NCBI GenBank assembly: GCA_964016885.1
Contig: OZ024747.1
Span: 34,472,001-34,536,000 of the forward strand
Length of the DNA: 64,000 bases
From: Eledone cirrhosa
Taxonomy: Eukaryota
Direction of reading: 5' to 3'
A program made the position numbers and the translations under genes. A model generated the notes under the pieces. That model saw nothing but the letters and a program-made list of their open reading frames with translations. It did no database searches and was not told the DNA's origin. Within the stretch, counting starts at the first letter, position 1. Every line of letters starts with the position of its first letter. Below are positions 3,338 through 64,000 of this stretch, one piece after another.

Positions 3338-3340
<3 letters not shown>

Positions 3341-3992
3341 TATGTATACGTACATATATGTATACAGACGTACAGTAGTATGTATAATCATACATACATG
3401 CACACGTATATATATATATATATATACGTATGGGTTTACCGAACATTTATTATAATGCTCGGTTTATTTGTAAACAAACAGCCCGAATTAAGCCCTACAG
3501 TGTTCGGCAACCATCGTTGCCATTTTGTTCAACACTGACAAAGGAACGACTAACTAGTTTCTAGCTTATTAGCTGTCAACAGCACCGTATACCTTCCGGT
3601 CAGATGATTGAACGTTTGAAAGTATATACTTTCCTTATGCATATTAACGGCTGAGCAGCCTAATTTGCATATCGAGTAAGTTAGTCGGCCGGGCGTACGG
3701 AAAACGATAAATGGAAACAATTAAATTTCATTTCTCACTCTTAGTACGGCTGATACTTAAATATAAGTATGTATACGTACATATATGTATACAGACGTAT
3801 ATATTTACAAACAAACCGAACATTATAATAAATGTGCGGTAAACACATACGTATATATATATATGTGTGCATGTATGTATGTATATACATACTACTTCAC
3901 GTCTGTATACGTATATGTACTTATACATACATATATTTAAGTATCAGCCATACTAAGAGTGAGAAATGAAATTTAATTTTTTTCCATTTATT
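3338..3992. repeat. Nested inverted repeats (fold-back rearranged element)
   Basis: 3338-3475 is inverted at ~3805-3930, and 3707-3798 is inverted at 3899-3992. Confidence 0.8.
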
Positions 3993-4011
3993 TATATATA
4001 TGATCGAGGTA

Positions 4012-4945
4012 AATAAATGTATTCTCTTTTCTCCTAGTTTATTTTACACCTAATTCTGTTTAATTGACTGTATATCTGGGCGATTACGCTGTCGAAATAT
4101 TCGATAAATATTCCGTCGCAGCCGACGCGAAGGGCTAGTTTCGGTTATTTGTTGGAGATTTCTTCATAGAAGCCTTATTCTTATAGCCTTGTCTATTCGA
4201 TTTTTTATATAGTTAATTATGCTAATTGCGAGAGGAAATGGTATTTATTTTATCTGGTGATTCTATAGACATGTTTTATGATATATAGCTCTGATTATTT
4301 AATTTATTAAATTTTCATTGAGCCACAAAGTGACCCGTTGCAAAACACGTATATGTATGTATGCATATATATATATATATATATGTAAACCTTTATATGT
4401 AATAATCTCCCGTAAGGTTGAGATACAAATTTGGCTGTATTGTGCTGTGCTTTCTAGCAAAAAGCCACCAGCTGTAAGCAACTGACTAAACACTCCTTCC
4501 AACCTGACCGCTGCAACGTCACGATTTTAGCCATTTTTTAACGTATTCTTGGCGCGATTACTTTGGAAAATTTATTGTCTAGATTTGAGCAAACTCTTGA
4601 AGAGTCCGGTGCTCGAGTTTCCGATGTTATTGGAAATCTCAAAATGCGGACGAAACCATGGTTGATGTAAATAAATGTATTCTCTTTTCTTCTAGTTTAT
4701 TTTACACCTAATTCTGTTTAATTGACTGTATATCTGGGTGATTACGCTGTCGTAATATTCGATAAATATTCCGTCCCAGCCGACGCGAAGGGCTAGTTTC
4801 GGTTATTTGTTGGAAATTTCTTCATAGAAGCCTTATTCTTATAGCATGCTCTATTCGATTTTTTATATGGTTAATTATTCTAATTGGTAGAGGAAATGGT
4901 ATATATTTTATCTGGTGACTCTATAGACATGTTTTATGATATATA
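4012..4945 (+). mobile_element. ORF-less HHR-bearing repeat in partial tandem (4012-4285 duplicated at 4669-4942)
   Basis: ~275 bp direct repeat; unit 4400-4945 is homologous to 63003-63520 (minus); HHR-like motif at 4594-4666. Confidence 0.75.
4594..4666 (+). ncRNA. Type I hammerhead-like motif (C3 to U)
   Basis: UUGAAGA-GUCCG...CGGAC-GAAA-CCAUGG-UU; the homologue at 63282-63360 has intact CUGAAGA. Confidence 0.6.
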
Positions 4946-4959
4946 TATATATATATATT

Positions 4960-5390
4960 TAATATAGAAAGGGCTTCTACAGGACTAGAACTGATTCATT
5001 CGGTAGAAATCAACAGGAGGCCGACTGTCCAAGTCAGTGGTATTTATACCTTTTCTGGTGGTAGGAGAGGCTAGTAATTGGGATGGGTGGAGGTCATTGG
5101 TTGATGGATTTAAAGAAAAGTGAATTCTTTAAAAACTATATTTAGAGTGACAAAGGCAGAAATAATTCAACCTAAGTGCCTGTAGACAGATTCATACTGG
5201 AGGTGTGTGTGTGTGTATGTGTGTGTGGGTTGGGTGGGGGGGGGCTACAGATTTTAAGGGTCGTTTATCCAAACAATAGCTATGTATAAGAGTGTGCGTA
5301 TGTGTGTGTGCGTGTCTGATTGTAGATACCTGACCATTTTGGCAGACCTACCAATGAATAGCTATTTTTTGTCTAAACGACCCTTAAAAT
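4960..5390 (-). repeat. Putative PLE-type 3' repeat family (also 29270-29560 and arms of 61762-62235)
   Basis: Shared ggtatttatac...ggtaggagagg...gggtggaggtcattggttgat; degenerate HHR at ~4983-5016. Confidence 0.7.
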
Positions 5391-5851
5391 TCATTGACAT
5401 GTAGAGCGAAATGTTCTTTTTTATTTGAATTTGACAAAGCCGGCCATTTATCGTTCGTATACAGGAAACTGACTGACCAGTCTGCCGATATGCAAATCTG
5501 GCTAATAAGTGGATCTGCTAATATGCAGATCTGACACATCAGCCAGTCTGCTAATATGCAAATCAGGCCGATCAGTCACTGTATTTTTGAAAATAGCATA
5601 TATTTTCACTAGCTGTGACAGTTTGGCAGGTGAACAGTGAGATGTACTGATGAAGGGTGATACCAAGAAACATTAGTGTCTGCAGTTCTGTTCGCATGCC
5701 AACACAAGAGCAAGAGTGAAGTGTTCATTCTACTGACATGGCTTTAAAATTGAGGCTTGTTTGCATAATTGCTAACGAATCGAATGTTATTATTAATATT
5801 CGAAAAACTCAGATTACATTTATTGTATTCAGCCATGTAGAGCGACATTTT

Positions 5852-14270: not shown

Positions 14271-14316
<46 letters not shown>

Positions 14317-17300
14317 ATGTGGGGAATGTGGAGTTACCCCTTAGTTGTCATGACTCCCAGGGCTGCCCTGGCCCGGGGTGGTAGTAACTGTTAGGGCTCC
14401 ATTTATGGGTTAAATAACTACCTTATTCGAGTGGCGCCGGTAAGGTATTGTCAGCCATTGAAAAGAAATATGGAGAGTCGATCTAACAGCACTAGGGTTA
14501 GAGCCCCTAATTACACTGTCAAGGAGCAGCCTGGTCGTTATGACTCTGCTGGCTTAGAGCCACAGAGAGGGCCAGTGGATGATGGATCAGCTGTCTCTGA
14601 GACAAATATAAAGAATGCAGTTTTGTCCTGCAGAAGATCCATCAAAATGGGCACTTTGTATGTGAGGACTATTCGGACGCTGGAGAAGAGAGAGGAGTTG
14701 GGACATCTGTTCGAGGAGAGTGGTATACAGATACTTGCGATCAAAGAACACAGGATCCTACACGATGAGCCCGTAAGGAGTGTGATGATCGGGAAGAAGA
14801 GCCAGCTTATCACTACATCGGCAGTGAAGAACACAACAAATGCTGCAGTAGGAGGAGTGGGTTTTGTGTTCAGTTCAAAAACCAATCTGTTGGTGAGGGA
14901 AATAATGCTATTCCCCCGCGAGTGTTGAGGGTGACCTTCAATGGAAACCCAAGACTGACAGTCATCTCAGCCTATAGTCCAACCGAGGGGGACAGTGATG
15001 TGAGTGCGGAATAGTTCCATGAGGAGGTGTGTAGAGCTGTCAACACCACTTAGGCACACAATATCCTGCTTGTTTGGGGGGACATCAATGCACATGTGAG
15101 TAAGGAGGGCAGTGAAGATCCTTGCTGGTACTTCCATAACAACACCAACCGAAATGGAAGACTACTGAGAGACACCCTGCTGGAGGCGAACTTGACGGCG
15201 ACAAACCTAAGGTTTAGGAAGAATCTGGGGAAGATGTGGACCTACATCTCAGATATGCACCTGTCCAAGTCCCAGATTGATTTCATTCTGGTGAGGAAAA
15301 AGTGGCGGAATAGTGTTCTGAACACGGAACCATACAGCTATTTCAGTACACTGGGTAGTGACCACTGGCTTGTTATGAGTGAGGTCCGGGTGAGCTTAAT
15401 AAAGAACAATCTATGACTGGGGAGCTTTCAAGGAAGATGATAAGCTACAGGAGAGGTTCACAGTGGAAGTGAGAAACAGGTTTTAGTGCTCTGTGTGGAG
15501 AGTCAGAGGAGAGAGAGATTGGATGGACTGAGTAGAGGGTGACGAGGAGGTACGGGTACTTCACCAATGCAGTGGCGGAAGCAAGTGAAACCCTGGTGCC
15601 GAGGAAAAAGAACAAAGAGAAGCACGTCAGCTCTGCAAACCCAAAAGTGTGTGCAACCAGAGAACACCTGAAAGCTGCCAGGGACCAATTCTATGCTGAT
15701 CCTGCGGAGGAGAGGATGGAGATTGTGGAGATTTGATGAGGGAAGAGCTCTGTACCGCTTACACTGAGGTCAGAGAGGAGGCACTGATAGAGAAGATCAG
15801 AAGTGTGGAGAGAGCGGTTGACAGATCTGGATATAAGGAGAGCTGGATGATCATCAACGAGATCACAGGGAGGAAGATAAGGTGTTCGAGTCAGATCCAA
15901 GGAACGGGGCCCGAGGATAGGAAAGGAAATGGCTAGACCATTTAAGGACCCTACTTGGAGAGCCAACCTCCACAGCCCAGAGCACTGGGAAGATCAGGCG
16001 GCTGTTTGAGGAACTGGATGTTGAGACAGAGCCCTTCACCAGAGAGGAACTTCAGAGAGCCAAGAAGAGGATCAAGGAGGGCAAGGCTCATGGAGAAGAT
16101 GGAGTGGCATCAGAGGTGATGAAGAGGTGTGATTTTGATGATATCATCCTGGGATTCTGTAACGGGGCACTGGAGAAAGGAGTTGCCCCGAATCAGTGGA
16201 GGATCAGTAACATCGTCCCAGTGCCAAAGAAGGGAGATCTCTCTAACACCAACAACTACCGGAGCATCTCACTGACGTCACTTGTGGCAAAGACCCTCAA
16301 AAGGATGATTCTTAACAGGATCCAGCCTGAGATGGAGAAGTTCAGGGACAACCAGAACGGCTTCAGAGAGGGTAGATCAACCACCAATCACATCCTGATG
16401 CTGAGGAGGATATTAGAGGGAGCTAGAGCAAAGTGCTTTCCTGCGGTCATGGTTTTCATTGATTTTAGGAAGGCCTTTGATTCTGTGGACCCTTACTGCC
16501 TGATGAAGATCTTACATGCTTATGGAATCCCCAAGAAGATAGTGGACCTGATATCACTGCTCTACACCAACACCAAATCCCAAGTCATTACTCCTGATGG
16601 GATGACAGAATTCTGTGAGATACTGGCTGGAGTGCTCCAGGGAGATATATTGGCTCCCTACCTTTTTATCATTGTAGTGGACTATTGTATGCGCCTTGCA
16701 CTGGAGAAACACCAGGACTCTGGCTTTACTGTAGCACCGGCTCAGAGCAGGAGAGTTAGGGCGAAAAAGGTATCGGATGCAGAATTTGCCGACGACATAG
16801 TTTTGGTGACCAATACAGTGAAGGAGGCAGAAGATTTGATGCGGGAGGTTGAGACTGTGTCGATGAGTGTGGGGCTGAGAATGAATGAGACTAAAACAAA
16901 ATATCTGGTAGAGTATGTTGAGAAGCCAGAGGGGATCACTAATGTAGGCGGGAAGCCGCTGGAATTGGTTGAGGACTTCCTGTATTTGGGAACAAAGATT
17001 GGGAATACGGAAGATGATGTGGTTGAGAGGAACACCAATGCCTGGGCGGCGTGCCACAGCTTGAGATGGGTGTGGGAGTCGGATCTTCGTAGAGACCTGA
17101 AAATCCTGCTCTTCATTGCTGTAGTGGAGTCTGTGCTGCTGTATGGGTCTGAGACTTGGACACTAACCAAGAAACTCACTCAGATGGTGGATGGGTGCTA
17201 CACGAGAATGCTGAGGATGGCTCTGAACATTAATCAGTATACACTGAGGATGAAAAACTCAGAGCTGTATGGGAGCATCCCAAAAGTCAGCTCAAAAGTG

Positions 17301-17543
17301 ACACAGAGGAGACTGAGGTTAGCTGGACATGCTCACCGACATCCAGAGTTGACATTGCACTCAGTGCTCCTTTGGGAGCCCCTACATGGACACACTAGAA
17401 GAGGAAGACCAAGGTTAACGTATGTTGATTCCCTAAGGACAGACACTGGTCTGTTGGAGACGCAAGACATGGCACCGATAATGAGGGACAGAGACCGCTG
17501 GAGAGAACTCGTCCATGGATCTCGGGAATTTTACCCGCCTTAA
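14317..17543 (+). mobile_element. RTE-clade LINE, near full length
   Basis: APE (GT.YVRT, IKEHR, ISAYSPT, GD.NAH, SQIDFIL, SDH) and RT; flanked by (TA)n; sister copy at 56887-60140. Confidence 0.95.
16104..17543 (+). CDS. Residual open reverse transcriptase frame of the RTE LINE (479 aa)
   Basis: PKKGD..NYR.ISL, NQNGFR, FIDFRKAFDSV, GVLQGD.LAPYLF, EFADD, FLYLG, LLYGSETW, RRLRLAGH, RGRP; the upstream part of the ORF is disrupted. Confidence 0.85.
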   Translation: MASEVMKRCDFDDIILGFCNGALEKGVAPNQWRISNIVPVPKKGDLSNTNNYRSISLTSLVAKTLKRMILNRIQPEMEKFRDNQNGFREGRSTTNHILMLRRILEGARAKCFPAVMVFIDFRKAFDSVDPYCLMKILHAYGIPKKIVDLISLLYTNTKSQVITPDGMTEFCEILAGVLQGDILAPYLFIIVVDYCMRLALEKHQDSGFTVAPAQSRRVRAKKVSDAEFADDIVLVTNTVKEAEDLMREVETVSMSVGLRMNETKTKYLVEYVEKPEGITNVGGKPLELVEDFLYLGTKIGNTEDDVVERNTNAWAACHSLRWVWESDLRRDLKILLFIAVVESVLLYGSETWTLTKKLTQMVDGCYTRMLRMALNINQYTLRMKNSELYGSIPKVSSKVTQRRLRLAGHAHRHPELTLHSVLLWEPLHGHTRRGRPRLTYVDSLRTDTGLLETQDMAPIMRDRDRWRELVHGSREFYPP

Positions 17544-17569
17544 ATATATATATATATATATATATATTT

Positions 17570-17885
17570 AATACAATAACAGATATAGTTTAAAGCTAAA
17601 CTCTGACTGGTAACCATCTCACTCAACAAACATTAGGTTATATTAAAATATAAACCCAATTTAAGTGTTTGGGGTGCTAACAATATGTATAATGTGGAAA
17701 AACCAGTTGTATTATTTTATGAGATATAATTAAAGTTAAAGTATATCTCCCTTTCCAAACAATTGTTTCATTATAAATTTTCTACAAGTTTGGGAGAATG
17801 TTTCCAGTTTATGTAGAAGCCTAATATATATTCATGTAAGAATATATTTAGGTGGGCACTTATAAATCATCAGTGGAAGCCCATT
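17570..17885 (-). mobile_element. ORF-less ~310 bp HHR-bearing repeat (second copy 61345-61655, plus strand)
   Basis: The two copies are diverged reverse complements; both abut (TA)n at their 3' end. Confidence 0.8.
17753..17878 (-). ncRNA. Type I hammerhead ribozyme, long stem II
   Basis: UUCCA-CUGAUGA-U-UUAUAAG...UUUAUAA-U-GAAA-CAAUUG-UU-UGGAA. Confidence 0.85.
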
Positions 17886-18068
17886 AAACATTGATATAAG
17901 AAAACAATTTCTTACCGCTGTCAATAATCATGTCCGTAAAGTTGCTCTCTCTCACATCGAATGACCGCCAAATTTGAAATTCCATCAGTTTTTGACTGAG
18001 GAAGTATCGTAGCGACACGAAGCGGGAAGGTGGACAACCCACGAAATGAGGAAAAAAAATAATAATAT

Positions 18069-19694: not shown

Positions 19695-22600
19695 ATGGTG
19701 AAAGAGTGAAGAATAACATGATCAACAGTACAAACAGGTTTTATTTACAGTATTAACAATTGTTTCATTGATTAGGGTGTCTAAAATGTGTTAATCACAT
19801 GAAATTGTGTCATTCAATTTTAAATACATACATGCCTAATCAAATCATCGGAATAACTGATAAAAATTATACGCGGCGTTTGTAATATACTAGGAGAATA
19901 CAAATAAAAACATCAGTAATAAAGAAAGAAAAAGAAAAAAGAGAAGAGAAAATGAGAGAGTGAAAATAAAAAAATAAAAATAATAAAAAATAATAAATAA
20001 GTTAGAATGACGATGGTAAAAAATAAGTAAAAAATATATATGTGAAAATAATGAACATAATATGATTGTTGAAAATAGTTGTGGTGGTGCTTAAAGTTAT
20101 AGTGGTGTGTAAGTATAAATATGTGGTGGTATAAATATGAAAATATTAAATATAGCACATAACTTAGATAAGGAATTTAATAACCTCCAAGGAGGAATTT
20201 ATAGAGACGGTACACTCCTTTTACCTAAAAACTTAAGTAATCAAAACTTGGAAAGATTACGTAAAAACATTAGGATCTTCTTCAATAAACGAAAGTAAAG
20301 ATGATGTTGATGGTGGGGATGATGACGGCGTTGGTAATATGGGTGGTTACACCTGGATGGTGTTAGTGCCGAAGTTAACCTATATGTAAGTCTGAATGTA
20401 AGGAAAAAAGATAGGAAAATAAAATATAATAAAGGAAAATAAATAGAATACAAAGAAGCAAACATATATAATAAACAAAAAATAGGCACAGTATTGGGTC
20501 GTCAAGTATGACATCTGTAGAAATTTGTTTTTTTTTGTTCTACACATCTCTACAAATTTGACACCCTTCGACCCAATAATAAAAAAGCTAAAGCAGAAAC
20601 TACCCACTGCAATAACCTTATGGCTAGGCCTAGGTATCACTTTCGAACTTAATTCTAAAAAAGCTAACTTCTTAGATGTATCACTCAACCTAAACACAGG
20701 ACTAATAGAGCCCTTCCATAATAATAACGAAAATCTAGCCTACATTAGTTATAACTCAAACCACCCTCGCTCCATAATTAACTCCATAGCATATGGTGTA
20801 TCCCTCTGTAATTTCACGCTTATCTTCTAACCTAGAGATGTTTAATGAACACGCGAACTACTATAACATAGCTTTACTTAAGGCAGGCCACAAAGAGAGG
20901 CTCAAATACATACCAGAAATAAACAACAACACACTTAACAACAATAACACCACCCACACCTATAGAAATAACAAATATAGGACTAAACATAGAAATAGAC
21001 AACGGGCAGGAGAAATAAATGAACCGAATACTAATATAAGGACCCCTAGGAACTATAGAAGATCCAGAGATAGCAAATACTTATTGTTCAATCCAATATT
21101 TAACTCCTCTATATAAACCAAACTACCTTCTACATTTTTAAACTAATTGACAAGCAGTTCGCTAAACTTCACAAATACCATAAAATCTTTAATAAAAAAA
21201 CTAGCAAACTGTCTTACTCTATTGCAACCAGCATAGAATCACACATACATAAAATTAACTATAAAATAATCTCTAATGAAAATAACCTACAAACAAACAC
21301 CATAATACCAAATGCAAAACATAAACACATAACAACATCACAACCACACACACGTCAGAACGCATCACAAAAAAACATCAACAAACCCTAATCTCAGTCC
21401 ATACATGACAACATACAAAACACCATCGGATAACATGCACACAGGAAGGCCTCCAAATATAACTGTCACTTACCGGATAAGTGCCCACCCAAAAATAGAT
21501 GCCTGTAATCAAATATAGTGTACCTGTGTACTATAAATTCGGGCAACTTAGCATGGCACTACATAGGTTTTACGGCTGGAGAGTTCAAAGAAAAGATGGT
21601 ACGTTCACAGACATTCTATAAAGAACCATAAACTAATGAACATAACGCTGGCCAATAAAATCTGGCAGCTAAAGGATACATACCAAGAATACAGGATTAG
21701 CTGGTCGAAATTATCGGTTGCAAAAGCATACGTTAATGGAATGTTCCACTGCGGACTTTGCAATATGGAGTTGTTCCATATTTTGAAGTATGACAAAATG
21801 CTGCTGAACAGCAAAATAGAACGATCAATTTTCATGATTCGATCCAACAATCCCATAATTCAAGCTGAACCATTTAGAGTCTTTTATAATAACCCACTAT
21901 TATTAACTCTCAATAGACCAACTAATCACTAAATCAACATTATAATCTCCTAACCTCTATTTCTTTCACTAAAACTATTTCACCTCTTCCATTATATCTT
22001 ATCATGTTCTCTTCACCTCTCACATAACTTCCAATTTATTAATTTATTCTTTATTTATCATTGTGTTATTTCTTCCTAATATAACCCTCTTTTATTTAAC
22101 CAATACATATGTATATATTTAATATTTTCATATTTATACCATCACATATAAATTTACACACCACTATAAATTTAACCAAGACACCACCACAACTACTATT
22201 TTCAACAATAATATTATGTTCATTTTTTTCACATATATAAGTTTTTATTTTTTTTTTACCATCTTCATTCTAACTTATTCATTATTATTTATTGTTTTAT
22301 TCTTTTTTCTTTTTCTTTCTTTATTGCTGATATTGTTATTTGAATTCTCCTAGTAACAAACGCCCTGCATAATTTTTATCAGTTATTCCGATGATTTCAT
22401 TAGGCATGCATGTATTTAAAATTGAGTGACACAACTTCAAGTGATTAGCACTTTTTAGACATCCTAATCAATGAAACAATTGTTAATACCATGTTATTGT
22501 TGTAATACCATGTTATTCTTCACTCTTTCACTATTATTACTCCAACATTAACCTGCATAGGAATTCCCGAGAACTCGCCACCTAACTAAGGAAACCTCTT

Positions 22601-22695
22601 GTTAAGTGAAACAACGCCGTACGTTAAAGCTATCCACAATACAGAGTACTCACAACCTCTAACTGGACTACCTATAACGATAATTTGTTATCCCA
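19695..22695 (+). mobile_element. Naiad-like PLE with inverted 5' copy of its 3' repeat
   Basis: 19695-20155 is the reverse complement of ~22110-22530; ORF remnants GGIYRDG (~20190), ANFLDVSLNL, SNHP, LFNP, KYHKIFNK..KLSYS, YIG, LANKIWQLK, CGLC; unrelated insert at ~20295-20620. Confidence 0.88.
22384..22488 (+). ncRNA. Type I hammerhead, CCGAUGA core variant (mirror copy 19751-19855, minus)
   Basis: UAUU-CCGAUGA-U-UU(C/G)AUUAGG...CCUAAUCAA-U-GAAA-CAAUUG-UU-AAUA. Confidence 0.7.
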
Positions 22696-22896: not shown

Positions 22897-22959
22897 GCAC
22901 ACATACAAACACACACACACAGATATATGTATTCTTATTTATACATAAGAAAGTATATA

Positions 22960-24115
<1,156 letters not shown>

Positions 24116-24209
24116 CATATATACATATGCGTATATGTACGTAGCATGATATTTATATAAAACGTCTTTGATGTATAAAATATCTGGAAGATGAAACGGA
24201 CCAGTCAAC

Positions 24210-28379: not shown

Positions 28380-28800
28380 TATAAAAAGCTCTTTCGTAAC
28401 ACATCTGCATCATCATCAGTAGAACTTTTGTGTTTCCTTCCAATGTATTGTAAAGTTTACGCCATTTTAATTTTAATTATACATTTATTTATTCTTTTCT
28501 CTGTCTCTGCCATTGCGTCTGCGTGTCTGTATAATGTCTGGTGATTGTGTTCTCGTTTGAGTGTATGTGTTTTTGTATTTGTATTTTATCTTTGTTCACT
28601 AGTGTGTGTTTATATGTGTTTGTTGTTATTTTACTTGTGTATATATATTTATTAATTTATTTGATTATATTTCCCTTAAATGGCTATTTTTTGTTCGGGT
28701 ATGGGTTTTGTGTTATTCCATTCGTTTTGTCTGTTTAACTTCGGTCTTTTTAGTTCTATCTCAGTTACCTCTCTGATTTGCCTAACTATTGACTCATTAT
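28200..28800 (-). repeat. PLE family A 3' end
   Basis: Reverse complement similar to 10960-11555; HHR-like motif at ~28390-28420. Confidence 0.8.
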
Positions 28801-28804
28801 ATAA

Positions 28805-28894
28805 CATATTACATGTCTTTCACTGTCGATCAGCTCGAGGAACAATCTATTAGTGATCGAACATGACTCTGAAATTGAAAGATCCTCAGATATG
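28805..28894 (-). ncRNA. Type I hammerhead motif
   Basis: CAUAU-CUGAGGA-U-CU...AG-U-GAAA-GACAUG-UA-AUAUG; plus-strand counterpart at 29154-29240. Confidence 0.65.
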
Positions 28895-29240
28895 CTTCAA
28901 TATGCAAGCTTGTCTTTGATGATATATGAATACCTCCCAATTCCTTTTAATATTTACCACATTCTATCAACGTGTTATACCACGGTATTCGACCATTGGT
29001 TCATTATCAATCATATAATTGGTTTATTTACAAACCAACGTCTATCCTTCATCCGGTCAAATAATCGCATCCATTCATGCGTGCCGGATTGTCTGCCCAT
29101 TTTCCCCAGCCCCAGGTATTCATACACCATCAACGACACCTTGCATATTGAAGCATATCTGAGGATCTTTCGATTCCAAAGTCAGGTTCAACCACTAATA
29201 GATCTTTCTTCGAGCTGATCGACAGTGAAATACAGTATAT
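28805..29240. repeat. Inverted-repeat cassette P4 with an HHR in each arm
   Basis: 28818-28910 mirrors 29140-29230 around a ~230 bp spacer. Confidence 0.8.
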
Positions 29241-29618
29241 ATAATGTGTTAATAAATATGTTTAATTCGGGAATATTCATCAGGAAGCCGACTGTCCAAG
29301 TAATATGGTGGTATTTATACCTTTTCTGGCGGTAGGAGAGGGTGGTGATTGGGAAGGGTGGAGGTCATTGATTGATGGATTTAAAGAAAAGTCTATTCTT
29401 TAAAAACTCTATTTAGAGAAAGAAAGTCAGAAAAAAATCAAGCTAAGAGCATGTAGACAGATTCATACTGGGGGGGGGGGGGTAATGATTTTTAAGGGTC
29501 GTTTAAACAAACAATAGCTATTCATTGGTAGATCTGCCAAAATGGTAAGGTATCTACGATCATGCACGCACACACACATACCCTCACACCCACACATAAG
29601 CACACACACAAACACACA

Positions 29619-29759: not shown

Positions 29760-30722
<963 letters not shown>

Positions 30723-30727
30723 TATAC

Positions 30728-30768
<41 letters not shown>

Positions 30769-33239
30769 ATTGAGGTTGGTAATGGCACATGGAATATAAA
30801 AGAGACAGAATACTTTTTTGTGAAAAAACATATAATTTTATAAGGTAAGGAAAGAATAAAGGGTATAAAAAATGACCGGTTTCGATGAGTCTGCAAAAGC
30901 CATATTTTCAAATGTTCTTTAATATTAAGAAAAATACACACGAATGGGAAGAATTATTCACACTTAGAAACAACCCTGAGATAACCATCAAAAAGCCGAT
31001 AAAGGCAGTACTGTTGTCATTATGAATACGGACTACTATAGGACCCTCGCACTTAACATTTTAGAAAACAACACATACTATGAAAAAACATAAAACTACA
31101 AACACACCAAAACAATGGGGAACCTTTTGACCTTACTGAATAAATACCGCAACAGCTTAACCACAAAAGAGTTTAACTCTATAAGCCACTTCAAATGCAA
31201 TATCAGCTCCTTTTCCGGCTTACCGAAACTCCACAAATGTAAACCCATAAACGATGCATGTGACACCTCAACCAACAATTACATTGAACTAACACCACCA
31301 GAAGACCTAAAACTCAGGCCAATTATAGCAGGCCCTACATGTGAAACCCACAGACTTAGCAACTTTCTGGACATCCTACTGAAACCCTTTCTACAACATA
31401 TACAGAGCTACATACGAGATGACCTTGACATGCTGAAACACCTCCCTAAAACAGTAAGTGCAAATACAATTCTTGTCTCCTTTGACGTAATAAACCTTTA
31501 CACAAACATACCCCACAACTATGGAATAACAGCAGTCCAATACTGTCTTAACACACACCCATAAGAAATACCGACACGCATCAACAAAGATTTTATCACT
31601 AACGGACTCCGCTTTATCCTACAAAATAACTACTTCACATTCAATGGTTCAACATACAGACAAGTATCAGGTACTGCAATGGGCACGAAAGTAGCACCCA
31701 CATATGCCAACCTAATCATGGGATTCCATGAACAACAAATATACAGTCAGTCCCTTCTCTTATTTGGAGACTCTTTCCACACACACCTCAAAGCCAATGG
31801 GAAAAGATATCTAGACGACTACTTTATCCTATGGCAAGAAGACATGAACTCACTTACTATGTTTAAAAACATGATAAACAACCAAGATAATAACATACAA
31901 TTCACAATGGAATCCAATCCCAAGGAATTAGCATACTTGGATATTCTCATCTCTGTAATAGACGGGAAATTAGATACAGATATATTCTATAAACCCACAG
32001 ATTCCAAGCAATACCTCTTTTTCACATCAAGTCACCCAAAACATACAAAACTTAACATTCCTTACAATTTGGCCAAACGTATATGTAGCATAGTATCAGA
32101 TCCACCTAAACGGGAGCAAAGACTAAAGGAACTAAAATACACCCTTATCTTAAGAGCCTTTCCACTTGAAATAATCAACAATCGAATAGACAGGGCAAAA
32201 CACCTAAATCCCCATCAACTTAACAATCCAAAACAGAAAACCACACTCAACACCCTGCCATATGTATCCACGTTCAACCCCAGCAATACCGAAATGTTTG
32301 ATCACCTACACAAAAACCTCCCCATCCTACTTAAAGATGTAAAAATGAAGTCTATTCTTGAAACACACAAGATCCTTAAAAGTGAAAGACAACCCAAATC
32401 ACTAAAACGCATTCTCACTGGACCAAATATACCCAAACCAATCCTCAACCCTACAGTTACCAAATGTGGTAGAATAATAGAACAAACTGTGGAACGTGCC
32501 TCTACCTCACTGAAGGACAAAAATTTACATTTAAAGATGGCCAAACATTTACAGTAAAAAACAATTTCATCTGCAACTCGGAGAACTTGATTTACGCAAT
32601 AACTTGCGGTGGGTGCAAACACAACTACATAGGACAGAGGGGCACCTCATTACGCAAAATAATGACCATCCACCGCCAACAAATCCGGGACGCTAACACA
32701 AGAAAAATCCCCTTGAGCAGCCATATTGCGAACTGCGCAGGAGTGACACTACCCAACTTTAAAATCTTCCCCTTCTACAAGTGCTCAGATTCGTTCACAC
32801 AGCAACAAATAATAAACAAAGAAAATCTATTCCTTAACAAATTTAAACCAAAACTAAACGGGTTATCACCCCAATAGAATTGTCATAAAATATAAACACA
32901 CATACGCACGGAGTGACAGATATGTGTGTGTATGTGTGCATGTATATAATTATCACTACTATTAAAGACCAGAGACCAATTCTGTAGAATCAGGTTTATT
33001 CGTTGACAGACCATGCCTTTGTGTGACCAACACATCCATTTTAAGCCGTGCACGTGCACACACATATATCTATATATATATATGCGCACACATAATTCAC
33101 CACTGTCGGTTGCGGGGCCCAATCTACATGAAGAGCTCAATGTGATCAGAATGACTTGTATTTTAATTTCACTGTTCTAACTTCTTATATTATGGAAAAA
33201 ATATATGCGTGTGTATATATATATATTTGGAGGCCATTT

Positions 33240-33730
33240 CTCTATGTGTGTGGGTGTATGTATGTGTATGTGTGTGTGTGTGTATGGGTGTGCATGTGGA
33301 TGTATGTATGTGTATGTATGTGTGTGTGTGTATGTATGTGTGTGTCTGGATGTATGTGTATGTATATATGTGTGTGTGTGTGTGTATATATGTCTGTGTA
33401 TGTGTATATATGTGTGTATGTGTGTTTGTATGTGTGTATGTATATATGTGTGTGTGTATGTATGTGTGTGTATATATATATATATATATGTGTGTATGCA
33501 TATATATATATATATGTGTATGTATGTGTGTGTGTGTATATATATATATATGTGTATGTACATATATATATATGTGTATGTATGTGTGTGTGTGTGTATG
33601 TATGTGTGTATCTGGATGTATGTGTATGTATGTGTGTATGTATATGTATGTGTGTGTGTATGTATGTGTGTGTATATATATTTATATATATCTATATATG
33701 TATGTATATGTATATGTATGTGTGTGTGTG
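33240..33730. repeat. Compound (TG)n/(TA)n low-complexity tract
   Basis: Directly visible; explains the VCVC/YIYI ORFs. Confidence 0.95.
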
Positions 33731-34063
33731 GATGAGGGTATGTGTATATATAGGTGTAAGTGCACTAAATCCCTTTCTATCACTCTCCCCTCTCCTACCG
33801 ACCACATGGAGATATATGTATGTATATTGCTTCCACCCCCTCACTGACCAGCAGCTGGCCATCTGGCCATTGCTAAATCTGACCTTAATAAAAACCACTC
33901 CCCACAAATAATTCCTCATTCACTACCAGAAAGGGACACACAGCAGTTAACTTGCTGCTACCAAGATGAAAACTACTATGGAATCCCACACTGAATTTTA
34001 TACTTGAATTTTCAAATCTCAAATTTTAATTCTTCTTATTATTAATTTTTCTTAATATTAATC

Positions 34064-34111
34064 AACATTTGAAAAGATGGCTTTTGCAGACACATCGAAA
34101 CCGGTCAATTT
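34064..34111 (+). ncRNA. Type I hammerhead, U3-A8 core variant (mirror copy 30869-30916, minus)
   Basis: AACAU-UUGAAAA-GAUG...CAUC-GAAA-CCGG-UC; stem I imperfect. Confidence 0.65.
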
Positions 34112-34264
34112 TTATACCCTTTATTCTTTCCTTACCTTATAAAATTATGTTTTTTTACAAAAAAAGTATTCTGTCTCTTATATATTCCATGTGCCATTGC
34201 CAACCTCAATTTTCTCTATAACCTTCGCTTTGTGTAGAAACTTACACTTTTCATATATATATAT

Positions 34265-34333
<69 letters not shown>

Positions 34334-34387
34334 AGTTAATATAAATTAATATAAAGGACTACCTGAGATTTGAACTCATTATTAATA

Positions 34388-35277: not shown

Positions 35278-35869
35278 AAGGTAGGTAGGAGAGAGGTTTC
35301 GAGAGGGTGTGAGTGGTGGGAAAAAATTAAAATAACATATATTAATAATAGTAAAAAATGGAAATATCACTATAGCATCATATTTATTTTATTATACATG
35401 TTTCAAGGATACCAAATTATGGCATCAGATAAAATACAATATTTGATGATTAAGGTAGTGACGTACCCAATATATAAACTTCCAACGTCAGCTTACAATG
35501 GGTACCTGGATTAAAATCTCAAAATTTTACAGGATATACCTTAACAGGGATATGTTAAACAGATAAAAAGACCATTATTTAGACCTTGAACATTTGGAAA
35601 AATAGCGTGTATATATTGGTCGTGGTGCGGCCGTTAAAGGGTGATGTATCAATTAATGGTTATTTATGCATAACTATATATATATAAACGCACAAATATT
35701 CGCGTATATACGGATATGTAGAACAACGTATATATACCCAGACACATATGTTATATTTTAGAGTTATGAAAAATATTTATATTCGTTATATAAAAGAAAT
35801 TATTGTAGGGTAATATATTTCGACATATAAGTATACATGGTTAAATATATGGATATATATTTACATAAG

Positions 35870-41952: not shown

Positions 41953-42580
41953 ATAAAATATTAAAAATAATGAATAAAACAATGAAACAGTTCCTTATAT
42001 TAAACTAAAAAAGTTCATTATTTAACGATCGTTTCTAGGATATATATGTGTTAGAATTGGCATGCATATTCAACAGATCTATGTACAAAATTATACAAAA
42101 TTATACAAACTATCAAAATTAAATATACATACCAACACATATATATGCCGTCTTCAGAAATAATGAAATATATTTATTGATAATAACAACAATTCAGTTT
42201 TGAATTGTTGTTATTATCAATAAATATATTTCATTATTTCTGAAGACGGCATATATATGTGTTGGTATGTATATTTAATTTTGATAGTTTGTATAATTTT
42301 GTATAATTTTGTACATAGATCTGTTGAATATGCATGCCAATTCTAACACATATATATCCTAGAAACGATCGTTAAATAATGAACTTTTTTTGTTTAATAT
42401 AAGGAACTGTTTCATTGTTTTATTCATTATTTTTTTAATATTTTATCTTGACTCTGTATTCCGTTTATCTTTCACCGAAAGTGATTTTTCATTGCATCTC
42501 TTCTTTCCATGATATCCGGATTACATTGAGTTCTTCATACGGATTGGACACTACCGTAAACTCTTGGTAGATTTATCTAC
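41953..42580. mobile_element. Hairpin cassette P5: ~245 bp near-perfect arms (41953-42445) + unique tail, between (TA)n tracts
   Basis: Apex aattca-gttt-tgaatt at 42191-42206; only a couple of differences between arms. Confidence 0.95.
42230..42383 (+). ncRNA. Type I hammerhead ribozyme (mirror copy 42014-42167, minus)
   Basis: UUCAUUAUUU-CUGAAGA-[long stem II AUAUAUAUGUGUUGG/CUAACACAUAUAUAU]-GAAA-CGAUCG-UU-AAAUAAUGAA; perfect 10 bp stem I. Confidence 0.88.
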
Positions 42581-56179: not shown

Positions 56180-56886
56180 AATCTATGAACAACCGTCCGG
56201 TTGTGGAACCAACCAACCAACTGGACATTTATAAATTCTTAAATTTATAATTTAATTCATAATACATTGGAGTGAAAGCAACTGGTGCGTGTGTTTCTTA
56301 TTGGCAAAGTGTAACAATATCGGTTTCAGCACACGTTTTCAGATAAATAATCTTGCTAAACAAATTCAGAAACGAAATATATATATATACATATATATAT
56401 ATGAGAAGAATATGAGGCACAAGATCATTGCGCGAATAATACAGATTAGAACTGTTCCCAAGTATAAAGATATTTGGTAAAAGGGGTCCTAATTGCAATA
56501 GTCACTTAGGTAATTTATTGACCTTAGTTGTTAACTCTTCTTTGAATGCAAAGCTAATGTATATATGTTAACTCTTGTTAACTTCAGAGGTCTCAAAATA
56601 TATAAGAGCAAAATCTAGTGTTTGTGTTATATATATATGATTAATATTTTATCAGTTTCTAAGGCAATCGATATATATATCTGTAATTAAGAAAACTCAG
56701 TTAATGCATCTGTTAATTCTGTTACGTTGATAATATTTAATAAATTCATTATGTGTTTTATGATTAAATAACGTAGTATATAATTTATGGTGCGGAATGT
56801 GTTGCGTTTCTTTGGAATGTAACATCGATTTTGGCGGGGAACATTTCCTGGTATGATACGCAATATATTTAGTATATTTTTTTTCT

Positions 56887-59800
56887 AGGGCGGGTAAAAT
56901 TCCCGAGATCCATGGGCGATTTCTCTCTAGCGGTCTCTGTCCTTCATTATCGCTGCCATGTCATGCGTCTCCAACAGACCAGTGTCTGTACTTGGGGCAT
57001 CAACATACGTTATCCTTGGTCTTCCACTTCCAGTGTGTCCATGTAGGGGCTCCCACAAGAGCACTGAGTGCAATGTCAACTCTGGATGTCGTGAGCATGT
57101 CCAGCTAACCTCAGTCTCATCTGTGTCACTTTTGAACTGACATTTTGGAGGCTCCCATACAGCTCTGAGTTTTTCATCCTCAGAGTATATTGATTAATGT
57201 TCAGAGCCATCCTCAGCATTCTCGTGTAGCACCCATCCACCATCTGAGTGAGTTTCTTGATCAGTATCCAAATCTGAGGCCCGTACAGCAGCACAGACTC
57301 CACTACAGCAATGAAGAGGCGGATTTTCAGGTCTTTACGAAGTCCGACTTCCACACCGATCTCAAGCTGTGGCACGCCGCGTAGGCTTTGCTCTTCCTCT
57401 CAACCACATCATCTTCCGTATTCCCAATCTTTGCTCCCAAATACAGGAAGTCCTCAACCAATTCTAGCGGCCCTTCGCCTACATTAGTGATCCCCTCTGG
57501 CTTCTCAACATTCTCTATTCATTCTCAGCCCCACACTCATCGACACAGTCACAACCTCCTGCATCAAATCCGCTGCCTCCTTCACTGTAGTTGTCACCAA
57601 AACTATGTCGTCGGCGATTTCAGCATCTGATATCTTTTTCGCCTTAACTCTCCTGCTCTGAGTCGGTGCTACAATAAAGCCAGAGTCCTGGTGTTTCTCC
57701 AGTGCAAGGCGCATACAATAGTCCACTACAATGATAAAAAGGTAGGGAGCCAATATATATCCCTGGAGCACTCCAGCCAGTATCTCAAAGAACTCTGTCA
57801 TCCCATCAGGTGTAATTACTTGGGCTTTGGTGTTGGTGTAGAGCAGTGATATCAGGTCCACTATCTTCTTGGGGATTCCATAAGCCTGTAAGATCTTCAT
57901 CAGGCAGTGACGGTTCACAGAATCAAAGGCCTTCTTAAAATCAATGAAAACCATGACCGCAGGAAGGCACTTTGCTCTAGCTCCCTCTAATATCCTTCTC
58001 AGCATCAGGATGTGACTGGTGGTTGATCTTCCCTCTCTGAAGCCGTTCTGCTTGTCCATGAGTTTCTTCTCCATCTCAGGGTGAATCCTGTTAAGAATCA
58101 TCCTGTTGAGGGTATTTGCCACAAGTGACGTCAGTGAGATCCCCTGTAGTTGTTGATGTTGGAGAGATCTCCCTTCTTTGGCACTGGGACGTGGGACGAT
58201 GTTACTGATCCTCCACTGATTCGGGGCAACTTCTTTCTCCAGTGCCCGGTTACAGAACCCTAGGATAATATCATCAAAAGCACACCTTTTCATCACCTCT
58301 GATGCCACTTCATCTTCTCCACGAGCCTTGCCCTCCTTGATCCTCTTCTTGGCTCTCTGAAGCTCATCTCTGGTGAAGGGCTCTGTCTCAATATCCAATT
58401 CTTCAAACAGCCGCCTGATCTTCCCAGTGCTCTGGGTTGTGGAGGGTGGCCCTCCAAGTAGGGTCCTAAAATGTTCTAGCCATTTCCTCTTCCTGTCCGC
58501 GGGCCCTCTTCCCTAGATCTGACTCAAACACTTTCTCTTCCTCCCTGTGATCTCGTTGATGATCATCCAGCTCTCCTTACATCCAGATCTGTCAACCGCT
58601 CTCTCCACACTTCTGATCTTCTCTACCAGTTCCTCCTCTCTGGCCTCAGTGTAAGCGGTACAGAGTTCTTCCATCATCAGCTCCACAGTCTCCATCCTCT
58701 CCTCCGTAGGATCAGCAAAGAATTGGTCCTTGGCAGCTTTCAGGTGTTCTCTGGCTGCACACACTTTTGGGTTTGCAGAGCTGACGTGCTTCCATTTATT
58801 CTTTTTCCTCGGCACCTGGGTCTCACTTTCTTCCACCACTGCATTGGTGAAGTGCCCGTACCTCCTCTTCACACTCTCCTCAGTCCATCTAATCTCTCTC
58901 TCCTCTGTCTCTCCACACAGAGCACTGAACCTGTTGCTCATTTCCACTTTGAACTTCTCCTGTAGCTTATCATCTTCCTTGAAAGCTCCCCAATCGGGGC
59001 TGAGCCTTGCTCTTTATTAAGCTCACCCGGACCTCACTCATAACAAGCCGCCGGTCACTACCCATTGTACTGAAATAGCTGTATGGTTCTGTGTTCAGAA
59101 CACTAATCTGCCACTTTTTCCTCACCAGAATGAAGAGAATCTGGGACTTGGACAGTTGCATATCTGAGATATAGGTCTACATCTTCACCGGATTCTTCCT
59201 AAACCTTAGGTTGGTCGCTATCAAGTTCGCCTCCAGCAGGGTGTCTCTCAGTAGTCTTCCATTTCGGTTCGTGTTGTTATGGAAGTACCAGCAAGGATCT
59301 TCACTGCCCTCCTTACTCAGATGTGCATTGAAGCCCCCCAAAACAAGCAGGATGTTGTGTGATTGTGTGGTGTTGACAGCTCTACACACCTCCTCATGGA
59401 ACTCTTCCGCACTCACATCACTGTCTCCCTCGGTTGGACTATAGGCTGAGATGACTCTCAGTCTTGGGTTTCCATTGAAGGTCACTCTCAACTTTCGCGG
59501 GGAGACAGGCATTATTTCCCTCACCAATAGACTGGTTTTTGTGCTAAAAACAAAACCCACTCTTCCCAAGCAGCATTGGTCATGTTCCTCACTGCTGATG
59601 TGGTGATGAGCTGGTTCCTCTTCCCAATCATGACACTCCTCACGGGTCATCGTGTAGGATCCTGTGTTTTTGGATCGCAAATATCTGTAAACCACTCTCA
59701 TCGAACATATGTCCCAACTCCTCTCTCTTCTCCAGCGTCCGACTAGACCTCACATTCAAAGTGCCCATTTTGATGGCTCTTCTGCAGGACAAAACTGCAT

Positions 59801-60140
59801 TCTTTATATTTGTCTCAGAGACAGCTGATCAATCATCCATTGTCCCTCCCTGTGGCTCTAAGCCAGCAGAGTCATAACGACCAGACTGCTCCTTGACAGT
59901 GTAATTAAGGGCTCTAACCCTAGTGCTGTTAGATTGACTCTCCATATTTCTTTTCAATGGCTGACAATACCTTACCGGCGCCACTCGTATAAATGGGGCC
60001 CTAACAGGTACGACTACTCCGGGCCAGAGCAGACCTGGGAGTTATGACATCTAAGGGGTAAGTCCACATTCCCCACAGCTCCTGAACTCCCGAACTGGAG
60101 CCTTGCCATTGGATGTAGTTTAATGTCATATTCAGGACAC
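56887..60140 (-). mobile_element. RTE-clade LINE, second copy of the 14317-17543 family
   Basis: Highly similar peptides (FIDFKKAFDSV, GVLQG, EIADD, ISAYSPTEGD); several frameshifts. Confidence 0.95.
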
Positions 60141-61353
60141 ATTTAGTATATTCGTTAACAAAAACGAAGTTGAAATTTTGAATTAGTTATTAATGAATAT
60201 TGCAATATTTGATAAACATGAAAAACATCTTCAGGATGTAGGGTGTAAAACTAATTTATATGTATTTTGGGTGAGTTTGGAATCAGATGCACTTTTCAAA
60301 TTCATATATTAATTATTTTTCCATCCTATTCTTATATGTGGCACCATTGTTACAGAAGTTAACAACTATTATATATTGAACCTTACTTTGCTAGTCATTC
60401 TCTCTAAAATAATCATCTCGAGTGATTTGATATTCTTTGATAATAACGACAATTTGGCAATTTAACGTCTATTTTGCTGATTATACCCAGTGGCTCTTGC
60501 TAGATTTGAAGTATAATGGATCGTCTATATGCTTAGAACTGCAGGTCCTTCAGGACAGCAACATCTGAATTAGCATGATGCAAGTGATTCTTAAGCTCAT
60601 AGAAGTAAAGCTGCACAAACTTGGGTTCAGCATAACTTGGAAGTAGTGATCAAATAAGATGACAGACCTTACCTTGGATCTTAATACTGGAACTAAATCT
60701 TCTCTGCCATAAATTGATATATGTCAATCGAAAAATAAAAAAAAGATAATAATTATAAAGCTGATATGGAAAAAAGAAATCTTTGAAATTGATAGAAATA
60801 CATGACGGTTTATTGCATCCAGAATATAATTTTTTGTAAAATAAGTTGCATTACTTTGAATAAATAATGAATGAATATTACATAATTTATCTACTAAAAT
60901 TCGTAACACATGATTAAACATATATTAAAAATATTATTCAAGATTTACTTTTAAAAGGATTCAAATTTCAACTATACTATAGAGAGAGAGAGAGTGAAAG
61001 AGAAGGATGAAGCGATTTGGAATTTTTTCAACACGCTGATGTGTATGTGTGCATGTGTGTATGTTGTTGTTCTTTGATTTTACAAAATTGCTAGAGCGAG
61101 AAAGAGAGATTGTATGTGTGAGTTTATAAAGAGAGGAGTGACTGGACAGATATATATATATATATATATATTATGAAGAGAGAAGGAACATTTAGATATA
61201 ATTAGTAATAAAATGTATCATATCTAAACTGCTCCTAGATTCCTCGACTACTTAGTTTCGTGGCATAAACAAAAACAGTACATCATAAAGATATAGAGCC
61301 TTTGCGACATCGGTAAGAACATTTTTTTTTCTTATATCGATGTTTGACGGGCA

Positions 61354-61475
61354 TCCACTGATGATTTATAAGTGCCCACCTGCATATATTCCTATGGAAT
61401 GTTGTGAAGGCTTCTACATAACCCGGACACATTCTTCCAATTTGTAGAAAACTTATAATGAAACAATTGTATGGA
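61354..61475 (+). ncRNA. Type I hammerhead ribozyme, long stem II
   Basis: UCCA-CUGAUGA-U-UUAUAAG...CUUAUAA-U-GAAA-CAAUUG-UA-UGGA. Confidence 0.88.
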
Positions 61476-61650
61476 AAAGGAGATATATTTTAATTGTGTC
61501 TCATATGAAATAATGCTACTGGTCTTCCGCAAAATACATATAGTTAGCACCCCAAACGTAAAATTGGGATTATACTAAGGTATATCCTAATGTTTGTTGA
61601 TTGAGATGGAAGCCTGTCAGAGTATAGCTTAAGGCTTTCTCTGTTAATGT

Positions 61651-61693
<43 letters not shown>

Positions 61694-61761
61694 GTTATTC
61701 CGAGTTGAATCGGAGGTAACCACAGTAAGTAAGGTACTCAATACATAGCAGAGTATAAAAG

Positions 61762-62235
61762 TTTTAATATAGATGAGAATCTACAGGACTAGAACTGTTT
61801 CATTCTTTAGAAATCATCAGCAATCAGGGTATCAAAAAATAAATATGGTATTTATAGGTCTCTTCAGGTGGTAGGAGAGGGTAGGGAGTGGGATGGGTAG
61901 AGGTCATTGGTTGATAGAAAAGGGAATTCATTAAAAGCTAATTCTTTAAATCTATTATTTATATTTAGAGTAACAAAGGCAGAAAGTATTCTGAACTTGT
62001 TTATAGAGTTCTTTCTGCTTTTGTTACTCTAAATATAAATTATAGTTTAAAGAATTAGCTTTTAATGAATTCCCTTTTCTATCAACCAATGACCTGTACC
62101 CATCCCACTCCCTACCCTCTCCTACCACCTGAAGAGACCTATAAATACCATATTTATTTTTTGATACCCTGATTCCCGATGATTTCTAAAGAATGAAACA
62201 GTTCTAGTCATGTAGAATCTCATCTATATTAAAAC
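61762..62235. mobile_element. Hairpin cassette P6 (~225 bp arms) with a minimal HHR in each arm
   Basis: Arms are near-exact reverse complements; HHR 61787-61825 (minus) GAUUG-CUGAUGA-UUUC(UAAA)GAAU-GAAA-CAG-UUC-UAGUC; mutated mirror at 62171-62209. Confidence 0.92.
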
Positions 62236-62244
62236 TATATATAT

Positions 62245-62283
<39 letters not shown>

Positions 62284-62285
<2 letters not shown>

Positions 62286-62594
62286 CGATATTAAATAAAT
62301 GGAAACTATATTTATAAAACCATATTTATTTCATTATATATATTTCAGGGATATCATATTAAAACTATGTTATGCCTTCTTCAGACAAAATACAAATATT
62401 GTATTTTGTCTGAAGAAGGCATAACATATTTTTAATATTATATCCCTGAAATATATATAATGAAATAAATATGGTTTTATAAATATAGTTTCCATTTATT
62501 TAATATCGTAAATATACTCCAAATACTTGTTGAGTGCTTTTATATCAGTTATAAATATTTACTCGTTGTTAACCCAACAATTTAAATAAAACTT

Positions 62595-62597
<3 letters not shown>
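62284..62597. mobile_element. Hairpin cassette P7 (~112 bp arms, 62284-62510) + tail, HHR in each arm
   Basis: Apex acaa-ata-ttgt at ~62397; HHR 62402-62467 UAUUUUGU-CUGAAGA-AGG...CCU-GAAA-UAUAUA-UA-AUGAAAUA. Confidence 0.92.
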
Positions 62598-62661
<64 letters not shown>

Positions 62662-62667
<6 letters not shown>

Positions 62668-62948
62668 CAACATAAGGTCTGCCTGTACGATCTAGAAAAT
62701 AATAAATCAATACTCACAGACTCATATGGGCAAAAAGCCCATATGAGTCTGTGAGTATTGATTTATTATTTTCTAGATCGTACAGGCAGACCTTATGTTG
62801 TTGAATTAAGATTTTTCACTCTAGCGATCTTATTAGTCAATTGCAACTATAACATGTAAATGTTTATCAAATATTAATTTATACTGCTCAGAAGCGATTC
62901 CTAGAGGTGAAATGATTGTAAATGACCTCCTTGAGTCTAAACTCTAAG

Positions 62949-62950
<2 letters not shown>
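62662..62950. mobile_element. Hairpin cassette P8 (perfect 70 bp arms, 62662-62806) + tail
   Basis: attcaacaacataagg...atatgggc-aaaaa-gcccatat...ccttatgttgttgaat; no convincing HHR core. Confidence 0.9.
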
Positions 62951-62998
<48 letters not shown>

Positions 62999-63002
62999 TA
63001 GA

Positions 63003-63520
63003 TCATCTCCTTAGAATTATTAGATACAATATATACCATTTCCTCTCCCAATTAGCATAATTAACCCCATATAAAAAATTCAAATAGTCCAGGCTATAAG
63101 AATAAAGGCTGCTATAAAGAAATATTTGATAAATAACCGAAAGCGGCCTCTTCGCGGTGACCTCAATAGAGTATTTACCCAACATTTCAACAGCATATAG
63201 AAACTGACTAAATATACCGTCAACCATACACAATTAGGTGTAAATTTAAACTTAGAAGAAACGTGTACATACCGTAATTACATTTCTACCATGGTTTCGT
63301 CCGTATTTTTAGATATCCTATTGTTAGGATGAATCTAGAGTAACATACTCTTCAGGAGACAAACTCAAGTTGGACAGTTAATTTTCCAAAGCGACCGCGC
63401 CAAAAATAGATTCAAAAATGACTAAGAATCGTGACGTGGCAGTGGTCAAGTTAGAAATAATGTGATTAGTTGCTTACGGCGGGTAGGCTGGTTGCTAGAG
63501 AGCGCAGCCCAATATCGCCC
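63003..63520 (-). mobile_element. ORF-less HHR-bearing repeat, homologue of 4400-4945
   Basis: HHR 63282-63360: CUGAAGA-GU...GGAC-GAAA-CCAUGG-UA; (TA)n on both sides. Confidence 0.75.
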
Positions 63521-64000
63521 TAATATATATATACATATATATATATATATGTACGTATGTATATATATATATATCTTACTGCTTCCCCGTTCTCTCTGTT
63601 TCTCTCACCTTCTTTCGCCCCCTCTGTCAGTTACACTTTCTCTCGACTGACCTCTTCCTCGCACTTCCACTCACTCACTCTCTGTTTCTCCCCTTCTCAC
63701 TAGATCCCGTTTGGCTAGTAGTGGGGTCCTTTCTTGCTCACATCTCACTCACGTCGGACGGTCTGTGTCTTGACCGCTCATGAAATCCACCCAGCTTATG
63801 CTGACCGGATAACCATATTGCTTGTTTATTTTTCTATCTTCAGTTTGCTTCCTTCTATGTTGTTTACTTGTCTCACTCGCTTTACGCGATTTACGTGTCC
63901 CAATAGCTTTTTTTAGTTATTGCTCGCACCAACCTGAGGTATATGATTTTTAATGCGATGAAATATCAATGATGGTTGGCAAATCACTGACGAGGGACTA

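Follow-up and report, generated by a model that had tools for sequence, protein, structure and literature searches.

Organization of the array

The window (the whole stretch of 64,000 nucleotides analysed) was AT-rich and microsatellite-rich (75 rows), and contained LINE-type reverse transcriptase (RT) fragments and other repeats; it looks like animal DNA. Near its right end lay an array of five units between (TA)n tracts, three of them head-to-head palindromes with a one-sided tail, and six type I hammerhead motifs were detected in four of the five units with our own descriptor (Table 1). (TA)n was the only kind of repeat array found in 61-64 kb, and no ORF of at least 130 aa was present in the array region. 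An earlier note on this DNA had reported five mutually unrelated cassettes with TA spacers, four of them with hammerhead cores. The tract coordinates and unit positions were recovered, the descriptor scan found motifs in all units except P8, and the five units were unrelated at the DNA level, the best cross-matches being AT-rich stretches of 20-21 nt (E 6e-4 to 4e-3). The proposed bounds held in position, apart from the start of unit 1, which was corrected to 61306 with 61173-61305 as a separate, high-depth unit; the three palindromes were confirmed, and to each a one-sided extension was added (67, 89 and 143 nt for P6, P7 and P8 respectively).

Table 1. Features of the array and of the Penelope-like elements in the window (positions in the window).
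Feature	Position	Strand	Description
(TA)n tract 0	61150-61172 (also given as 61150-61171)	none	At the 3' end of unit E0
Unit E0	61173-61305	-	5'-truncated end of a separate high-depth repeat
Unit 1 (C1)	61306-61654	+	Repeat end with type I hammerhead, 3' end at TA
(TA)n tract 1	61655-61692		
P6	61693-62235	none	Head-to-head palindrome, 67-nt tail on the left only
(TA)n tract 2	62236-62285		
P7	62286-62597	none	Palindrome, 89-nt tail on the right only
(TA)n tract 3	62598-62663		
P8	62664-62949	none	Perfect 70-bp palindrome, 143-nt right extension
(TA)n tract 4	62950-62996		
Unit 5 (C5)	62997-63522	-	Repeat end, 3' end at TA tract 4
(TA)n tract 5	63523-63574		Interrupted
Probable further unit	63575-64000	+	Hammerhead core heptamer from 63987, cut by the window end
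PLE-like element	19695-22694		TA, inverted end, decayed ORF, hammerhead end, 160-nt one-sided tail, TA
PLE-like element	30622-34353		RT/GIY-YIG ORF remnants between inverted ends stopping at TA

Relatives of four of the five units occurred in other parts of the window, in most cases with different neighbours. The unit 1 hammerhead (stem I at 61354-61357, core at 61358-61364, GAAA at 61460-61463, score 16) had a branched helix II of 95 nt, a palindromic helix III and a predicted cut after 61471. Left to fold freely, this motif did not adopt the hammerhead shape (z -1.52), as expected of a motif needing a partner for helix III. A relative of unit 1, 80% identical, was located at 17570-17922. Both copies started at the same base (61306 and 17922), with the hammerhead core about 50 nt further downstream, and this common start may be the 5' end of the RNA.

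Unit E0 contained the second half of a hammerhead only (GAAA at 61259-61256, helix III, GUC and the 3' strand of stem I) and abutted unit 1 head-to-head without intervening TA; the missing first part of its hammerhead was not found in the window. The read comparison spanned 59800-61654, and so covered unit 1 and E0 within the array. Summed contig depth in run X1, which is not a copy number, was 1.7e4-2.6e5 over 61164-61654 (1.5e5-2.6e5 in E0) vs. 9-12 in the flank, with many variant contigs listed over this stretch. The loose ends of three X1 contigs and one X4 contig at E0 led into a first core box of the U3-A8 type, and the majority letter at 61252 in the reads made helix III of E0 palindromic. 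In sample X6, 512 raw reads had loose ends at 61653, followed by TA; among the listed pieces none spanned the read-compared stretch. Just left of the array, 60792-60915 was another small repeat, with very high depth (up to 6e5 in X1) and common loose ends at 60833-60837.

The arms of P6 (61760-61991 and 62006-62236) aligned with 222 matches, 9 mismatches and 1 gap column. Each carried one hammerhead, on the minus strand at 61820 (score 10) with a weakened stem I, and on the plus strand at 62176 (score 8) with a single change in the core and a mismatch in helix III; helix III was 4 bp long with an 8-nt loop. What we take, by eye, to be CCAAT-like and TATA-like words lay upstream of each. Single-arm relatives of P6 (73-75%) were found at 4958-5168 and 29309-29439, and a P6-family pattern gave no match in a metagenome scan. 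Directly beside the P6 relative at 29259 lay an inverted pair (28787-29254) whose hammerhead-like motif had a helix II of 61 nt.

The P7 arms (62286-62395 and 62399-62508) matched at 108 of 110 positions and both contained an intact hammerhead (minus strand, 62384; plus strand, 62410; score 17 each), with a helix II of 31 nt and a palindromic helix III; the 3-nt tip lay 11-12 nt upstream of the hammerhead cores, and a relative was found at 35338-35445. P8 had identical arms (62662-62731 and 62737-62806, 70 of 70 matches) around a 5-nt tip. Its left arm met TA, its right arm was followed by the extension before TA was reached, and there was no second copy to set its ends; the descriptor found no hammerhead in it and the window held no relative. 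P6 and P7 have the form of an inverted, 5'-truncated head-to-head copy, the direction being given by their hammerheads; P8 shares the shape only, with no marker of direction. Another palindrome built like P7 occupied 41953-42580 (242 matches, 1 mismatch, 4 gap columns, a tail of about 135 nt on the right). Its hammerhead had the best score of the window, with a 10-bp stem I, a 115-nt helix II and a palindromic helix III.

The unit 5 hammerhead (core on the minus strand at 63355, score 11.5) had a helix II of 50 nt, a palindromic helix III and a predicted cut after 63287. Relatives 74-76% identical, with the same end base, lay at 4438-4938 and 4028-4280; thus three copies of the unit 5 family share one end base, as do two copies of the P6 family, the tail being optional.

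Detection of the hammerhead motifs

The type I hammerhead descriptor was written for this analysis, controlled by shuffling, and allowed a helix II span of up to 130 nt. This span mattered: a strict scan gave a single match, unrelated to the array, and with helix II limited to 75 nt the unit 1 motif was missed, whereas with the 130-nt limit the six motifs in four units were recovered. The helix II spans of the array were 95, 31 and 50 nt; motifs in other parts of the window had spans of 97, 78 and 115 nt. Nine matches in the whole window reached a score of at least 14, vs. a mean of 0.2 (maximum 1) in 20 shuffles, and 11 had both an intact core and a palindromic helix III, vs. 0-1 in 20 shuffles. 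The motifs of unit 1 and P7 are strong. Shuffles yielded a mean of 3.75 matches at scores of at least 10 and 1.9 at scores of at least 11; the P6 and unit 5 motifs score within this range, so that their support comes partly from conservation in second copies. The conserved core and helices I-III were recognized by our descriptor and by none of the Rfam models: there was no match at the gathering score in the whole window, and no hammerhead among 40 sub-threshold matches in 61000-64000 (E up to 10). Those 40 were mostly microRNA hairpins and were dismissed as chance.

Polarity and clustering around TA tracts

For 18 of the 24 hammerhead matches with a score of at least 10, a TA tract followed the predicted cut within 300 nt, and for 5 one preceded it; the arms of one palindrome are non-independent in this count. 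On 19 hand-picked motifs the polarity was 18 of 19; the test quoted here uses all 24 matches. Outside the array, 13 of 19 matches had TA within 300 nt downstream, vs. 23% of random points. The motifs sat 20-290 nt inside the TA-facing ends of the units.

TA tracts were clustered in the window as a whole (33 of 55 gaps of at most 600 nt vs. 23.5 expected, p 0.0006). The spacing in the array is not exceptional within the window: random placement gives a run of five such gaps in 35% of cases, and nine short gaps in a row, the longest run, lay at 1.4-4.9 kb. Piles similar to the array were present at 1.4-5.4 kb and 41.3-43.5 kb. The first, a longer TA-separated pile (1438-5400), included palindromes at 2552-2835, 2831-3364 and 3707-3991; the unit 5 family was represented there by a partial tandem and P6 by a relative. 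A 1.2-kb degenerate (TA)n tract at 22954-24128 had no insertion inside.

Penelope-like elements with coding remnants

The anatomy of the array units recurred in two Penelope-like elements (PLEs), both decayed and with remnants of RT/GIY-YIG coding (Table 1). The element at 19695-22694 had a hammerhead with a 78-nt helix II in both ends, whose score was reached by none of 300 shuffles; its core ends were as in unit 1, and stems I and II differed from those of unit 1 yet paired. Its ORF matched other GIY-YIG-type fragments, including one at 12287 (E 7e-9). The Atlas neighbours of the 12287 fragment included GIY-YIG clusters (27% of the members of one cluster), which is a lead only. A CxCx5C-like linker with one mismatch was present in the ORF of the element, and three fragments outside the array units (12500, 21458 and 50556) had such a linker; it is a mark of the Hydra clade (PMC8557442, section 11). 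The other element, at 30622-34353, contained an ORF (31094-32877) between inverted ends, which terminate at TA and hold a hammerhead of the U3-A8 core type. The GIY-YIG domain of this ORF bore a CxxC motif and its Atlas neighbours were HTH_animal. Of the 15 ORF fragments scanned against Pfam, three were named (RVT_1 twice, and zf-RVT below the cut-off) and none of the 12 presumed PLE fragments was; the PDB search returned one match (E 0.21).

No RT or endonuclease coding was detected in the array: 10 ORF fragments of the window gave no tblastn match in 61-64 kb, and no PLE-type RT plus GIY-YIG ORF lay inside the units. Therefore the units are described here as non-coding ends of PLE type and are not filed under a named clade. 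The array is linked to PLEs by anatomy, and by sequence only in the case of the unit 1 hammerhead.

The window also contained two LINE copies, 90% identical and in opposite orientation (14315-17563 and 56863-60080). The first had a 540-aa RT frame and ended in TA, tail-to-tail with a unit 1 relative. We take the LINEs of the window to be RTE-like.

Origin of the array

The array probably consists of 5'-truncated 3' ends (pseudo-LTRs) of several (TA)n-targeting, Hydra-like PLE families, piled up by repeated insertion into one microsatellite. PLEs are described as having 5' truncation, an inverted 5'-truncated copy, a one-sided tail, a bias for (TA)n and, in members of the Hydra clade, hammerheads (PMC8557442). 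PMC4209133 reports hammerheads with a palindromic helix III, and pairs of hammerheads on opposite strands at distances of 100-700 bp, ascribed to truncated PLEs. Palindromes at inverted junctions are ascribed to self-priming in PMC3846280. Two RT start sites that bracket the tail, and AT-rich targets cleaved in vitro, are described in PMC11167929. This published behaviour accounts for nearly all the features of the array. Insertion into (TA)n, a trait of the Hydra clade, was found for the array units; we infer their clade membership, as the units encode no protein. Repeated targeting of (TA)n by several families had already been proposed in the earlier note, and the relatives in the window, the 512 reads ending at TA and the hammerhead polarity all speak for it. 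The likely source, Penelope-like retroelements, had not been named.

Each insertion would have begun with a GIY-YIG endonuclease/RT from an intact member of the family, which would cut (TA)n and prime reverse transcription at a constant position a little beyond the hammerhead. Synthesis would halt before, or on reaching, the 5' end of the RNA. Fold-back or a second RNA would then supply an inverted second copy, whose start or stop at another fixed site would leave the one-sided tail. The hairpin tips of P7 and P8, of 3-5 nt, fit fold-back. By splitting a TA tract in two, every insertion would create halves that may regrow by slippage and offer new targets, which would lead to clustering. The hammerheads would be passengers of the element ends, and those of the array are predicted to be mostly inactive. 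Several points count against the PLE origin: the units hold no RT or endonuclease sequence, Pfam named none of the presumed PLE fragments, the tails are longer than the published 30-40 nt, P8 has neither hammerhead nor relative, and the P6 and unit 5 relatives adjoin elsewhere too. An empty site was not found, and a target-site duplication would be hidden within TA.

The mixed-family, head-to-head junction of E0 and unit 1 would fit two templates, although it is a single case that a deletion could also make. A broader proposal, which we regard as doubtful, is that the TA-targeting PLEs of this genome carry active hammerheads with branched helices II of 31-115 nt, missed by short-spacer surveys, and that E0/unit 1 is one insertion from two RNAs, so that PLE palindromes would be built by a dimeric enzyme on two templates and not by self-priming. 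The core search in PMC8557442 used a 7-17 nt spacer, with half cores 35-50 nt apart being remarked on.

Duplication of the array as a single unit had been raised in the earlier note; no duplicate of the whole array was found in the window, and P6 and unit 5 relatives did adjoin, at 4438-5168. This pair, in the same order and orientation as in the array, is joined across a 20-nt TA, and both members are about 74-75% like the array copies. It could mean that P7 and P8 were later insertions into an older composite element, made of P6 and unit 5 lying tail-to-tail with a TA tract inside, the array being partly inherited as a block. We consider this improbable, since a third P6 relative (29259-29474) has a different neighbour, both families have fixed 3' termini facing TA, and P6, with arms differing in 9 of 232 columns, looks much younger than its 25% distance to the copy at 4.9 kb.

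An artefactual origin of the palindromes, most of all of P8, by assembly or amplification (as fold-back chimeras) is very unlikely, as is their being non-autonomous fold-back DNA transposons. The identical arms of P8, its lack of a relative in the window, and the end of the read comparison at 61654, before 61655-63522, would agree with these readings; however, the arms of P6 and P7 differ by 9 and 2 substitutions respectively, each of the three palindromes ends at TA and has a tail on one side only, and the palindrome at 41953-42446 has the same build.

The earlier note had also viewed the array as a composite ribozyme/dsRNA cluster. As a working unit this would be a selected composite whose read-through transcript gives long dsRNA and self-cleaved fragments with a regulatory use (a source of small RNA, or a terminator). 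P6, P7 and P8 are predicted to form three long hairpins, so that long dsRNA would form if the array were transcribed, and four units retain hammerhead motifs, both of those in P7 intact. Against this, the motifs are oriented three per strand; helix III pairs between different units on the same strand are weak (-2.7 to +1.7 kcal/mol, vs. -3.2 to -12.8 for self pairs); the read-through fold, as predicted, leaves no part of the P6 and P7 motifs unpaired; each P6 copy has its own damaging changes; and similar piles occur at the two other places in the window. A working RNA device thus found no support here and is extremely unlikely.

Three other origins were rejected: a non-LTR retrozyme, a head-to-tail tandem of one hammerhead unit (the array units are unrelated and only TA arrays are present); Athena/Terminon elements, with telomeric repeats beside the hammerhead (the arrays in 61-64 kb are only (TA)n); and Naiad (the last ~700 nt of five records had no likeness to the units by eye, and three of the four helix III motifs had no occurrence in the supplement of PMC8557442, the fourth having one, within coding sequence).

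On this reading the array is retroelement debris, yet a compact example of (TA)n-targeting PLEs feeding their own hotspots, and short palindromes of this kind can escape repeat annotation. Including hammerheads with a very long helix II would add to the number of PLE ribozymes and would matter for clades in which none are said to occur. Such piles also allow same- and mixed-family head-to-head junctions to be counted, which would separate self-priming from two-template models of the so far unexplained inverted PLE structure. A narrow literature search, by title and the start of the abstract, returned nothing on point for TA-flanked piles or a long helix II in PLEs.

Comparison with known systems

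Athena/Terminon ends resemble the array in having a hammerhead beside a simple repeat, but as described in PMC8557442 they join telomeric repeats at chromosome ends, whereas the repeat of the array is (TA)n. The non-LTR retrozymes of bioRxiv 10.64898/2026.07.22.740005 are, like the array units, non-coding, PLE-related and equipped with a type I hammerhead; there they form head-to-tail tandems of one unit, whereas the array units are unrelated and face both ways. Closer to the array are the minimal and dimeric PLE hammerheads of PMC4209133, with type I motifs, a palindromic helix III, the U3-A8 variant and opposite-strand pairs 100-700 bp apart, although helix II is much longer and branched in the array, and helix III of P6 is 4 bp with an 8-nt loop.

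Hydra-clade and Neptune/Nematis-type EN+ PLEs share with the array the (TA)n targets, a type I hammerhead near the 3' end, the inverted 5'-truncated copy and the one-sided tail (PMC8557442). A T after the first and before the second core box is, by our count, present in 14 of the 26 Hydra rows of File S2 in that paper, and in unit 1 and P6 too. Unlike Hydra-type PLEs, the array units have no ORF, and several families are stacked in 2.4 kb; their tails are 67-143 nt long, vs. 30-40 nt in the PLEs described in PMC8557442. By our own count, helix II spans 12-26 nt across the 26 Hydra rows of File S2 (one spike-moss row, of about 54 nt, is marked there as deviating), vs. 31-95 nt in three array units. 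Set beside these published motifs, the long helix II of the window as a whole (31-115 nt) and the mixed-family head-to-head junction are unusual.
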